From IMG/VR virus record IMGVR_UViG_2541047913_000007: 64,000 bases of DNA; one strand, given 5' to 3'. The stretch is from a virus. Lineage: Duplodnaviria > Heunggongvirae > Uroviricota > Caudoviricetes. Made by a program: the position numbers and the translations under genes. This document shows, piece after piece, positions 3,884 to 5,739 of the stretch; positions within the stretch are counted from its first letter, which is position 1; each line of letters begins with the position of its first letter. Below the pieces are notes generated by a model, which saw nothing but the letters and a program-made list of their open reading frames with translations, did not search any database and was not told the DNA's origin.

Positions 3884-5110
3884 ATGCCGGTAACTATAAC
3901 AAAAATCAGAACTGGAGAAGATGTTTTGTCAGCAGCCATTCACCGCATTGAATGGTTGTTTGAAACATTCTCTTCTGTATGTTTATCTTTTTCTGGCGGT
4001 AAAGATTCCACTGTACTTTTCCATCTTGTAGCCGAAGTGGCCTACAGGAAGAAACGTCGTTTTTCTGTATTGTTCATTGACTGGGAAGCCCAGTATCAAT
4101 GCACCATTGATCATATACAGAAGATGCGGATGATGTACCAAGATGTAACAGATACCTTTTACTGGGTTGCACTTCCCCTGACGACAGTAAATGGTGTCTC
4201 GCAGTTTCAGCCTGAGTGGATATGCTGGGAGCCCGGTGTAGAGTGGGTTCGACAGCCACCGGAAGATGCTATTACTGATATGGCGTATTTCCCCTTTTAC
4301 CGCTACGCCATGACTTTTGAAGAATTTGTCCCAGCTTTTTCTTCCTGGTTCGCAAGTAACCAATGTAGCGTGGCAATACTGACTGGAGTCCGCGCGGATG
4401 AATCTCTTAACAGATTTATGGGACTGGTTTCCCAACGAAAACTGAGATATGCAGATGATAAACCCTGGACCACGGCGTCACCTGAAGGTTTTTACTACAC
4501 CATGTATCCGCTGTATGACTGGAAAACCAACGATATCTGGGTATATAACGCTAAAACCTGTGCAATCTACAATCCTCTGTATGATTTGATGTACCGTGCA
4601 GGCATTCCTCTACGTAATATGCGTGTCTGTGAGCCTTTTGGCCCGGAACAGCGTAAGGGACTATGGCTTTATCATGTTCTGGAGCCAGAAACTTGGGCAC
4701 GGATGTGTGAACGAGTATCTGGTGCTGCCAGTGGGGCTCTTTATGCCAATGAAAGCGGGGCCTATTTTGCCCTGCGTAAACGGATGTCAAAACCATCCCA
4801 TCATACCTGGCGCAGCTATGCGTTCTTCCTGCTGGACGTAATGCCGGAAAGAACGGCTGAACACTACCGCAACAAGATAGCAGTTTACCTGCGCTGGTAT
4901 CAGAACCGGGGATTCCCGGATGATATCCCGGATGAACAGGAAAATGATCTGGGCTGCCGGGATGTTCCCTCCTGGCGACGTATTTGTAAGACTCTCATAA
5001 AGAATGATTTCTGGTGCCGAACGCTCTCCTTCAGCCCCAACAAACCCCGGCACTATGAACGTTACCTGCAGCGTATGAATGAAAGGAGGAAGGAATGGGG
5101 AATTCTGTGA
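3884..5110 (+). CDS. ibrA: IbrA-like protein, PAPS reductase-like (PP-loop ATP pyrophosphatase superfamily)
   Basis: 408-aa ORF containing LSFSGGKDS PP-loop motif; followed by overlapping ParB-like gene, matching the ibrAB pair described as activator of eib genes. Confidence 0.7.
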   Translation: MPVTITKIRTGEDVLSAAIHRIEWLFETFSSVCLSFSGGKDSTVLFHLVAEVAYRKKRRFSVLFIDWEAQYQCTIDHIQKMRMMYQDVTDTFYWVALPLTTVNGVSQFQPEWICWEPGVEWVRQPPEDAITDMAYFPFYRYAMTFEEFVPAFSSWFASNQCSVAILTGVRADESLNRFMGLVSQRKLRYADDKPWTTASPEGFYYTMYPLYDWKTNDIWVYNAKTCAIYNPLYDLMYRAGIPLRNMRVCEPFGPEQRKGLWLYHVLEPETWARMCERVSGAASGALYANESGAYFALRKRMSKPSHHTWRSYAFFLLDVMPERTAEHYRNKIAVYLRWYQNRGFPDDIPDEQENDLGCRDVPSWRRICKTLIKNDFWCRTLSFSPNKPRHYERYLQRMNERRKEWGIL

Positions 5111-5739
5111 CACCAGAGGTGGAGGTGCTGAGCAAGATGATTCGACAGTACTTCAGTCAGGAACAATCTGAAGAGAAAACCATACAGGCCCTGAACCATC
5201 TCCGCTGCGTACTCCATGAGATCAGCCCCTTTGCTCAAGAACCAGTGGACTGTGTGCTGTGGGTAAAAGCGGATGAAATTGTCGCTAACGATTATAATCC
5301 CAATGTCATGGCCCCAAGCGAAAAAAAATTACTGAAACAATCTCTGGAAAAAGACGGTTTTACTCAACCAATTGTTGTTTCGGAAGAAACAAGCCATTAC
5401 CTGGTGGTGGATGGTTTTCATAGGCAGTTACTAGGTAGAAGAACAGTTACTGGAAAACGCCTGAAAGGCTGGCTACCAGTAACCTGTATTAATCCAGACC
5501 GAAAGGGACAAACCTCACGTATTGCCGCGACTATCCGACATAACAGAGCCAGGGGGAAACACCAGATAACCTCAATGTCTGATATTGTCAGAGATCTTTC
5601 ACGTCTTGGCTGGACTGATGAACGTATCGGAACAGAACTGGGGATGGACCAGGATGAAGTTCTGAGGTTAAAGCAGATTAGCGGGCTAACGGAGTTATTT
5701 CAGCAGGCAGATTTCAGCCCTGCATGGACTGTTACATAA
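5095..5739 (+). CDS. ibrB: IbrB-like protein, ParB-like nuclease domain
   Basis: 214-aa ORF overlapping ibrA by 16 bp; ParB/Srx-like core (..DGFHRQ..) recognised from memory. Confidence 0.65.
   Translation: MGNSVTPEVEVLSKMIRQYFSQEQSEEKTIQALNHLRCVLHEISPFAQEPVDCVLWVKADEIVANDYNPNVMAPSEKKLLKQSLEKDGFTQPIVVSEETSHYLVVDGFHRQLLGRRTVTGKRLKGWLPVTCINPDRKGQTSRIAATIRHNRARGKHQITSMSDIVRDLSRLGWTDERIGTELGMDQDEVLRLKQISGLTELFQQADFSPAWTVT

Follow-up and report, generated by a model that had tools for sequence, protein, structure and literature searches.

In the DndC/DndB, SspD and BrxP systems a PP-loop ATPase of the phosphoadenosine phosphosulfate (PAPS) reductase fold works on DNA together with the ParB-superfamily protein DndB or a nucleoside triphosphatase (NTPase) partner (PMC10853773, PMC12914056). 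All four established DNA phosphorothioation (PT) systems possess a protein with a PAPS-reductase domain, and Dnd, Ssp and BREX type 4 also need an NTPase partner (PMC12914056). The ParB-like ATPase DpdB helps DpdA to insert a modified base into DNA (PMC12839542). The gene pair ibrA-ibrB, which likewise joins a PAPS-reductase-like to a ParB-like protein, occupies positions 3884-5739 of a 64,000-nucleotide stretch of DNA from a virus of the Caudoviricetes (IMG/VR record IMGVR_UViG_2541047913_000007), the whole of which is referred to here as the window. In the account cited here the pair has a single published phenotype, namely that it activates the expression of eib (Sandt et al. 2002, as cited in PMC7649339). 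Judged from residue conservation across its family, IbrA is neither a true PAPS reductase nor a DndC-type sulfurtransferase; the pair is tentatively read as an ATP-dependent adenylyl-transfer module that would work on DNA, with the activation of eib as a consequence. The features of the pair are the following.

3884..5110, plus strand: ibrA, 408 aa, ATG start; PP-loop ATP-pyrophosphatase-like domain (about residues 14-240) and basic helical DUF3440 domain (about 240-408)
5095..5739, plus strand: ibrB, 214 aa, ATG start; ParB/Srx-superfamily protein, exact sequence of UniRef IbrB
5084..5110, plus strand: coupling junction, with AGGAGG at 5084-5089, the ibrB ATG at 5095 and the ibrA stop codon at 5108-5110

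IbrA and IbrB compared with described systems

The two genes overlap by 16 nt (5095-5110) on the same strand and the Shine-Dalgarno sequence of ibrB, AGGAGG, sits within the 3' end of ibrA, a layout typical of translational coupling, by which ibrA and ibrB are predicted to be joined. The exact-sequence look-up returns UniRef RepID Q8KU24_ECOLX for IbrA and RepID Q8KU23_ECOLX for IbrB. Since the exact UniRef entries bear the names IbrA and IbrB and a single study named the pair (Sandt, Hopper & Hill 2002; J Bacteriol 184:3640), the window very probably holds the prototype ECOR-9 ibrAB allele, with the exact sequences of the ECOR-9 proteins. The gene pair itself is already known and its identification as ibrA/ibrB is correct. 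The preliminary description of the locus, which had recognized two overlapping genes at 3884-5739, named them ibrA and ibrB, assigned them a PP-loop PAPS-reductase-like and a ParB-like domain and placed them near the prophage end, is upheld on each of these points. The alignment check that it proposed for lost key residues finds the PP-loop of IbrA and the DGFHR signature of IbrB intact and invariant across the family, and the ibrA start lies about 1.8 kb inside the prophage, counted from the end of a truncated ynfG fragment.

IbrA matches Pfam DUF3440 (5.2e-33) and PAPS_reduct (1.5e-16), and its PP-loop, SFSGGKDS at residues 35-42, is intact and of the canonical ATP type. The AlphaFold2 (AF2) model is good (predicted local distance difference test, pLDDT, 85.6) and displays the PAPS-reductase alpha/beta fold; the closest folds are flavin mononucleotide (FMN) adenylyltransferase, adenosine phosphosulfate (APS)/PAPS reductases and CysD, and the PP-loop aligns with the GGKD loop of the PAPS domain of human FAD synthase. 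The helical DUF3440 domain has no solved counterpart, and the C-terminal domain is basic throughout the family, with a median pI of 9.5 over the last 110 residues. A search of 1.84 billion representatives gave 317 clusters at E<=1e-30 and 1109 at E<=1e-10, counted at 50% identity, the 317 being a lower bound for the size of the family. Among 77 full-length representatives of 50%-identity clusters, the positions conserved in >=90% comprise the PP-loop, D66/E68, G168-R170-x-x-E173-S174-x-x-R177, P209/D212/W213/D217/W219, Y229-N230-x-x-Y233-D234 and W112, W115 and W121 of a Trp-rich insert. The motifs SGGKDS, D66/E68, GxRxxES..R and DW...D.W are invariant in the 77, and the motifs are also invariant in alignments A1 and A2.

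No conserved cysteine was found in the IbrA family, either in the 77 representatives or in a check of 224 sequences. C249, C368 and C378 are each present in 61-76% of the 224 sequences and all three in 41%; an Fe-S site formed by these residues was ruled out, as they vary independently and give way to Ala. A true PAPS reductase requires a catalytic cysteine, borne by a C-terminal ECGLH-type motif. DndC requires three cysteines that hold a 4Fe-4S cluster and, to transfer sulfur, a further Cys dyad (PMC10853773). It is the absence of a conserved cysteine that places IbrA, as far as sequence conservation can tell, outside both enzyme types. IbrA also lies far under every NCBIfam cut-off for CysH, CysD and DndC, with 25-33 bits for the CysH and PAPS-reductase models against cut-offs of 154-254 and 17.8 bits for the DndC model TIGR03183 against 290.4. 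IbrA is an ATP-type PP-loop enzyme of the CysD/FMN adenylyltransferase (FMNAT)/PAPS-reductase branch, without the catalytic cysteine and with an extra basic domain. Given the ATP-type PP-loop and the established chemistry of the fold relatives, its reaction would be the transfer of AMP from ATP to an oxyanion with release of pyrophosphate (PPi). IbrA and IbrB have had their names since 2002, and databases wrongly label IbrA as an enzyme of sulfur assimilation: the RefSeq product of ibrA is 'phosphoadenosine phosphosulfate reductase', probably a misnomer, and that of ibrB is 'IbrB-like domain-containing protein'.

As a single sequence IbrB matches Pfam ParB_N with an E-value of 0.0016 (18.9 bits, under the 26.3-bit cut-off). 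The profile of 17 diverse family members, searched against the Protein Data Bank, matches ParB (4umk, 5.6e-7) and Noc (7nfu, 5.9e-5) and, more weakly, the ParB-fold kinase SbnI (0.0038) and sulfiredoxin. Across 17 sequences 36-58% identical to IbrB, 35 positions are invariant, and the invariant motifs are N-DYNPN (65-70), DGFHR (106-110) and TIRHNRARG-H (146-156). DGFHR aligns to the GERR box of ParB, Arg on Arg, with D106, G107, H109 and R110 invariant, while the position of ParB box III (ENLQRE) is taken by the invariant RHNRARG-H, and the protein ends at residue 214 without a further domain. By these alignments IbrB is a ParB/Srx-fold protein with an invariant signature that resembles a nucleotide pocket. 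A conserved C-terminal segment, GM-DE-LRL-Q-GL (183-198), aligns with the helix-turn-helix (HTH) region of ParB and Noc; because it is acidic (pI 4.2) and invariant across phyla, it resembles a surface for protein contact more than a helix that reads sequence. A repeated cis site of the parS type for IbrB was not found within the window. Among the PHROG families, phrog_2159 matches IbrB at 4.9e-91, and phrog_498 ('DNA methyltransferase') matches residues 56-189 at 7.9e-09 on the first 160 of its 633 profile positions, a match consistent with fusions of a ParB domain to a methyltransferase. Both IbrA and IbrB keep enzyme-like invariant residues.

The invariant SGGKDS of IbrA is the PP-loop also found in DndC, SspD and BrxP. 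In contrast to these enzymes, IbrA has no conserved Cys or Fe-S site, scores far under the cut-offs and carries a DUF3440 domain instead. Compared with CysD-CysN and FMN adenylyltransferase, the partner of IbrA is a ParB/Srx-fold protein rather than a GTPase, the enzyme has the extra basic domain of 170 aa, and its contexts are phage or mobile-element DNA rather than sulfur or flavin pathways. DpdA/DpdB also combine a ParB-like ATPase with a DNA-modifying enzyme, but DpdA is a TGT-fold transglycosylase and not a PP-loop enzyme, and Dpd clusters carry restriction components that the pair of the window lacks. SNF2-type helicases are also held by Dpd clusters. The ParB-methyltransferase fusions of phrog_498 share the recurring pairing of a ParB-like domain with an enzyme that modifies DNA; in IbrAB, however, the coupling is by gene overlap rather than by fusion, and the enzyme is of the adenylyl-transfer type and not a methylase. 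Shigella VirB is a ParB-fold, CTP-dependent anti-silencer that activates AT-rich, H-NS-silenced virulence genes, from which IbrB differs in being shorter, in its acidic C-terminal segment, in its strict enzymatic partner gene and in a family that extends across phyla and phages.

The K-12 paralogues YbdN and YbdM (b0602/b0601) are 57% and 61% identical in amino acids to IbrA and IbrB, respectively, and keep all signature motifs. They display the same overlapping two-gene layout, with an overlap of 28 nt (MG1655 634747-636569, locus L175 of the survey described below), but the genes are chromosomal, next to the gene of the LysR repressor CitR (YbdO), and outside any prophage. The citR-ybdNM locus is reported to be under the control of CitR and H-NS, and deletion of citR strongly derepresses ybdNM, with the cys and flagellar regulons also up (PMC9068703). 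The rise of these regulons is a possible downstream effect of YbdNM that has apparently never been separated from the loss of CitR. YbdM has been described as 'completely uncharacterized' (PMC8764527), and no mechanistic study of IbrA/IbrB or YbdN/YbdM was found in the literature searched, in which papers merely pass on the annotation or give ibrA as an auxiliary gene of sulfur metabolism.

Gene neighbourhoods, alleles and the eib-like gene

A survey of 80 viral and 80 genomic loci, sampled by the family profile and with open reading frames (ORFs) called and clustered, contains an ibrA-like ORF in 150 of the 160 loci. An IbrB-like gene lies at most three genes from ibrA in 128 of these 150, nearly always on the same strand; the two are directly adjacent, mostly overlapping or abutting, in about 100, and in 72 loci ibrB directly follows ibrA, as in the window, with an overlap most often of 28, 4 or 16 nt or with a gap of a few nt. 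IbrA and IbrB are obligate partners that are almost never apart in bacteria, archaea and phages. An SNF2-related helicase gene (Pfam SNF2-rel_dom 1.8e-6; phrog_62 'DNA helicase' 2.6e-24) stands upstream of ibrA on the same strand in 34 of the 150 loci, directly adjacent in 30; where every flanking gene runs the other way, as at several of these loci, the three genes make up a self-contained SNF2-ibrA-ibrB operon. Beside ibrAB of the window an SNF2 gene is absent, the upstream gene being an antirepressor gene. At 28 loci an IbrB of about 380 aa, placed before ibrA, is fused to a C domain of about 130 aa, and at 20 more the C domain is a separate small ORF beside ibrA, bringing the total with this domain to 48 (loci L011-L090, e.g. 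L083 4756-5901 and L031 5255-5665). The C domain, with the motifs W-E-C/D-Y, SCEHNLTN and NR-AWLGQA-C, has no Pfam assignment and no functional PHROG, and its profile has no match in the six-frame translation of the window; it is likely a third subunit that is missing from the E. coli type.

Homologues are present in many isolated phages of other hosts, among Bacillota, Bacteroidota and Actinomycetota, and the neighbours in viral contigs are replicative helicases, recombination exonucleases, DNA methyltransferases and replication initiators; in Streptococcus phage PY1 the module stands beside helicase genes. In Mycobacterium phage Philly (genes 1-5) and Faecalibacterium phage Taranis (gp36-42) it lies directly or just upstream of the terminase gene. 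In both Philly (L009, 1-4363) and Taranis (L008) the PAPS-like gene is flanked by two ParB-like genes, directly before the terminase in Philly; this layout hints that in some lineages the module is tied to packaging or to the control of late genes. No conserved nuclease, desulfurase or DndD/DndE-, SspB/SspC- or BrxC-type gene was found beside the pair in the window, in its other E. coli contexts or in the 150 loci. Two small neighbour families, c10 (phrog_26647, of unknown function) and c13 (a sub-threshold FeeM match), have no Pfam assignment or function-bearing PHROG and are both absent from the window. Among 150 representatives, the longer ones carry no extra Pfam domain of interest beyond one ABC-ATPase fragment, and two candidate IbrA-IbrB fusions (P0355 and P0349, with the N-terminal part from IbrB and the C-terminal part from IbrA) are apparently chimeras produced by a deletion or by assembly and were given no weight.

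The prototype allele is rare in E. coli, with DNA >=99% identical in 19 complete genome records. Counting a commoner allele of about 84% nucleotide identity as well, 1930 of the 5426 complete E. coli genomes have ibrAB. As a cassette this commoner allele consists of the two genes and no more: its similarity runs from at or just inside the ibrA start codon (window 3883-3967, most matches starting at 3901-3935) to the ibrB stop codon, and it occurs in an O157 island by a PerC homologue, in an ST131 island and on a haemolysin/OmpP plasmid. Copies in other phyla are found amid housekeeping genes or at the end of a prophage.

On the late-gene strand of the same prophage, about 18 kb from ibrAB, lies the candidate target of IbrAB activation.

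24072-25184, minus strand: eib-like trimeric autotransporter gene, 371 aa; YadA_anchor 4e-16, YadA (2lme) 1.7e-18, EibD stalk fragment (2xzr) 3.3e-7

An eib gene 19 kb away had been noted in the preliminary description; a YadA-anchor, EibD-like gene is indeed found in the same prophage, but none of the database names for this 371-aa protein calls it Eib, and eib-like is the accurate term. The 5' half of the gene and its upstream region form a trough of 33-36% GC (24450-25650) amid late genes of about 52% GC, the signature of a moron that was acquired independently and is probably silenced by H-NS. DNA similar to the eib-like gene is present in 49 of the 5426 complete E. coli genomes, and all 19 of the 19 genomes with prototype ibrAB are among these 49. 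Co-location and co-occurrence in these genomes support the link between eib and ibrAB. Strain DETEC-S792 (NZ_CP116067) is the best fit to the window both in its eib-like allele (99.9%) and in the distance between that gene and ibrAB. Six genomes share an ibrAB arm that is 100% identical, yet the eib-like gene at the same prophage position differs; in EC2 (NZ_CP058571) a 414-aa allele at this position covers only 34% of the gene of the window. Because an identical ibrAB arm is accompanied by differing eib-like genes, the eib slot is a variable cassette within one phage type. From ECOR-9 the pair was reported as an island of its own, with four Eib prophages as its targets in trans. In contrast, the pair of the window shares its prophage with the eib-like gene and lies in an arm collinear with the complete inducible phage PhiR5_2.

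A possible activity on DNA and its alternatives

The reading tentatively favoured here would have IbrA and IbrB form a complex that works on DNA. IbrB would bind a nucleotide and, together with the basic DUF3440 domain of IbrA, engage the DNA; IbrA would spend ATP to adenylylate an oxyanion, releasing PPi. The group so adenylylated, a phosphate or a carbonyl, would belong to DNA itself or to a component bound to DNA, and this target would thereby be modified or marked. In the relatives that bear it, the SNF2 translocase may give access along the duplex. Activation of eib would follow from a changed state of the DNA or nucleoid at AT-rich, probably H-NS-silenced genes rather than from classical transcription-factor action. 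The link to DNA is supported by the SNF2 linkage, the DNA-metabolism contexts in viruses, the phrog_498 match, the basic C-terminus of IbrA and a preprint that ties PAPS-reductase and ParBc genes to nucleoid-associated proteins. The suggestion in the preliminary description of a likeness to DNA-modification machinery fits these links in its general form. As phosphorothioation it fails, there being no conserved cysteine and no Dnd, Ssp or Brx partner nearby.

Several points weigh against an adenylyl-transfer activity on DNA. PP-loop enzymes mostly act on tRNA or small molecules rather than on DNA. The acidic HTH-like segment weakens DNA binding by IbrB through that segment, and the nucleotide pocket of IbrB is deduced from sequence only, as its AF2 model, built with 46 close homologues, has a pLDDT of 45 and was left unused. 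Modification, DNA binding, ATP hydrolysis or complex formation is not reported for any family member in the searched literature. Bacterial copies often stand amid housekeeping genes without a restriction or reader partner, several of them adjoining ribosomal, RimO-like or SusD genes, and this setting, together with the missing partner, is unusual for a modification system. The best eib-like copy lies about 18-20 kb from ibrAB in the same prophage in at least 7 of the 19 prototype genomes, and the co-occurrence in 19 of 19 reflects, at least partly, physical linkage within one phage lineage. Finally, eib activation could be explained without any covalent chemistry.

The last point is the core of a regulatory alternative, unlikely although to be taken seriously, in which IbrAB is a pure co-activator or anti-silencer: a VirB-like IbrB would load on DNA and relieve H-NS silencing, with IbrA as an accessory nucleotide-handling or regulatory subunit and the DNA left covalently unchanged. 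Such a role would agree with eib activation as the one phenotype given in the account cited above (PMC7649339), with the reported control of the K-12 citR-ybdNM locus by H-NS and CitR (PMC9068703), with the low GC content of both the eib-like gene with its upstream DNA (33-36%) and the ibrA 5' region (39-40%), and with the place of IbrB in the ParB/Srx superfamily. However, the enzyme-like invariant residues of both proteins are kept across phyla that have no target promoters to share, homologues occur in phages of unrelated hosts and in other phyla without eib genes, and the SNF2 linkage is unexpected for a simple activator. The putative HTH segment, acidic and invariant, is unlike a sequence-reading helix, and no repeated cis element was found to link the DNA upstream of ibrA to other parts of the window. 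A post-transcriptional route to the same phenotype, in which IbrAB would modify RNA such as tRNA (cf. TilS, TtuA and ThiI) and raise the translation of AT-rich genes with rare codons such as eib, is improbable: the linkage to an SNF2 translocase and the ParB-fold partner point to duplex DNA, the viral copies are placed among DNA replication and packaging genes, and the closest folds are small-molecule adenylyl and sulfonucleotide enzymes and not tRNA enzymes.

It is also unlikely that the pair is a conflict module, serving either anti-phage defence and superinfection exclusion or a phage counter-defence that guards incoming or replicating DNA, with eib activation as a by-product. The pair does lie in an accessory arm of the prophage beside antirepressor genes, a Panacea gene and the gene of a 2793-aa polyvalent protein; it moves as a bare cassette among islands, virulence plasmids and prophages of E. 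coli, counter-defence would fit its presence in isolated phages of many hosts, and a preprint lists PAPS-reductase and ParBc genes in candidate, predicted PANGU-like defence clusters. However, PADLOC-DB 2.0 gives IbrA only marginal, partial matches to BrxP (1.6e-7, over 80 residues around the PP-loop) and DndC (4.5e-5, 20.6 bits) and has no match for IbrB, so that a catalogued defence system is unsupported. With these noise-level matches, with no nuclease or other effector conserved beside the pair, with several bacterial copies by ribosomal, RimO-like or SusD genes and not in defence islands, with phage homologues by packaging and replication genes, and with a K-12 paralogue pair vertically conserved next to a LysR regulator, the defence role that had been considered conceivable finds no backing. 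A minimal PT system, in which IbrA would be the analogue of DndC, SspD or BrxP, IbrB would take the place of DndB or of the NTPase, and sulfur would come from host IscS, is very improbable. It could call on the central place of a PAPS-reductase-domain protein in every known PT system, one of which needs TdpC alone (PMC12914056), on DndB being itself a ParB-superfamily protein (PMC10853773) and on the weak similarity of IbrA to the BrxP and DndC models. The missing cysteines, the DndC score, and the failure to find a DndD, DndE, SspC, BrxC or desulfurase gene nearby speak against it, as does a gut isolate with a PAPS-reductase gene by an ATPase gene but without dndD, which showed no PT (PMC12914056), although the IbrA-likeness of that gene is unconfirmed. 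That IbrA is a genuine PAPS reductase acting as an auxiliary sulfur-assimilation gene is hardly credible: the RefSeq and PHROG name, the matching fold and the auxiliary-metabolic-gene label repeated in phage-genome papers suggest it, and the lack of a conserved Cys to serve in catalysis, scores far below the CysH and PAPS-reductase cut-offs, and an obligate ParB-like neighbour, often with an SNF2 helicase, argue against it.

A bolder extension of the adenylyl-transfer reading, itself doubtful, is that IbrAB/YbdNM and the SNF2-linked and C-domain variants make up an undescribed ATP-dependent DNA modification system, distinct from Dnd, Ssp, Tdp and BREX type 4. Its enzyme, a cysteine-free adenylyltransferase of the PAPS fold, would be led by a ParB/Srx partner to put on DNA an adenylylation or another mark that contains no sulfur. 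Such a mark would serve the protection or processing of phage DNA and would also turn on genes that H-NS silences, eib among them. If this were true, about one third of E. coli would carry such a system, K-12 included, as would phages of many phyla, and a DNA mark that de-silences acquired genes would tie phage DNA chemistry to a serum-resistance and immunoglobulin-binding virulence factor. What is new here is that residue conservation rules IbrA out both as a PAPS reductase and as an enzyme of the DndC type, together with the K-12 paralogues, the SNF2-linked and C-domain variants and a tractable phage. This phage, PhiR5_2, offers a test system with K-12 MG1655 as its recorded host, identical ibrAB and a gene at the eib-like position.

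The prophage arm around ibrAB

The prophage extends from about 2.1 kb of the window onward, is of the 933W-like lambdoid type and is inserted in ynfG; on the host side ynfF ends at 1984 and the truncated ynfG fragment at about 2078. From this end, next to the attachment site, the accessory arm runs from a truncated AntA gene to a full antirepressor gene, a hairpin with a T-run, about 170 bp of AT-rich DNA and then ibrA-ibrB, and two genes on the other strand converge on ibrB.

2524-2808: truncated second ant copy, AntA-type ORF
3058..3687, plus strand: Ant, phage antirepressor (AntA + P22_AR_C), co-oriented with and directly upstream of ibrA; Pfam AntA 4.6e-26, RefSeq annotation
3692..3715, plus strand: hairpin and T-run (AAAGGAGC-TTCG-GCTCCTTT, then TTTT) closing the upstream ant gene, from an inverted-repeat search
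3716..3883, plus strand: ibrA upstream region, AT-rich (about 39-40% GC by composition), not kept in the common ibrAB allele
5761..5796, no strand assigned: stem-loop separating ibrB from the Panacea-domain gene that converges on it; RNA fold -29 kcal/mol, z -1.9, T-run absent after the stem
5828-6352, minus strand: Panacea/SocA antitoxin-domain gene, domain match 2.5e-19, converging on ibrB
6503-14884, minus strand: polyvalent protein, 2793 aa, domain matches to LPD38, LPD5, LPD1 and MuF_C, converging on ibrB

Because the terminator-like hairpin and T-run end the ant gene, ibrAB probably has its own start region. A scan of 3716-3883 found no clear sigma-70 promoter upstream of ibrA, and a search for cis-elements that the DNA upstream of ibrA has in common with other parts of the window found only the ant terminator repeated, which recurs at about 46381-46407 after another ant gene. 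As a terminator the stem-loop at 5761-5796 is unproven, a T-run being absent. The right end of Escherichia phage PhiR5_2 (PV340546, 61.5 kb) is the same arm, with the order ant-ibrAB and an IbrA 100% identical to that of the window, and its record names the identical genes IbrA and IbrB. PhiR5_2 is an inducible lambdoid phage with a 933W-like late region and K-12 MG1655 as the recorded host. The 'IbrAB island' that Sandt, Hopper and Hill reported from ECOR-9 in 2002 is said to contain antirepressor homologues and homology to a Stx2 phage, and reportedly bordered the chromosome near min 35.8, the location of ynf. Judged from gene orientations, leftward early transcription of the circular phage through int and attP would enter ant-ibrAB, whereas in the integrated prophage ant-ibrAB would instead be co-oriented with the host ynf operon.

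The arm and the rest of the prophage display further elements. The lone Panacea gene (5828-6352) comes directly after the gene of the 2793-aa polyvalent protein, and a separate toxin ORF is absent; the Panacea-domain protein may neutralise a toxic domain of the giant polyvalent protein in the producing cell. Two copies of the Rfam family sRNA-Xcc1, at 2395-2483 and 2932-3017 on the plus strand (73 and 69 bits, above the gathering score), each lie just 5' of an AntA-type ORF, the truncated one at 2524-2808 and the full one at 3058-3687, and look like a conserved structured leader or small RNA (sRNA) tied to the ant genes. A C4 antisense RNA and the Hfq-binding RNA isrK (47134-47219 and 47245-47323, both minus strand) stand upstream of a third antirepressor gene (46408-47109, minus strand), which is a P1/P7-style immunity arrangement. 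Two tandem copies of the STnc100 sRNA family (42817-43026 and 43302-43495, minus strand, 130 and 139 bits) lie upstream of the lysis genes, and the early region of the prophage contains an IS3-family insertion sequence, with an ALIL pseudoknot at 52933-53049 on the plus strand (120 bits) and ORFs at 52652-53865.

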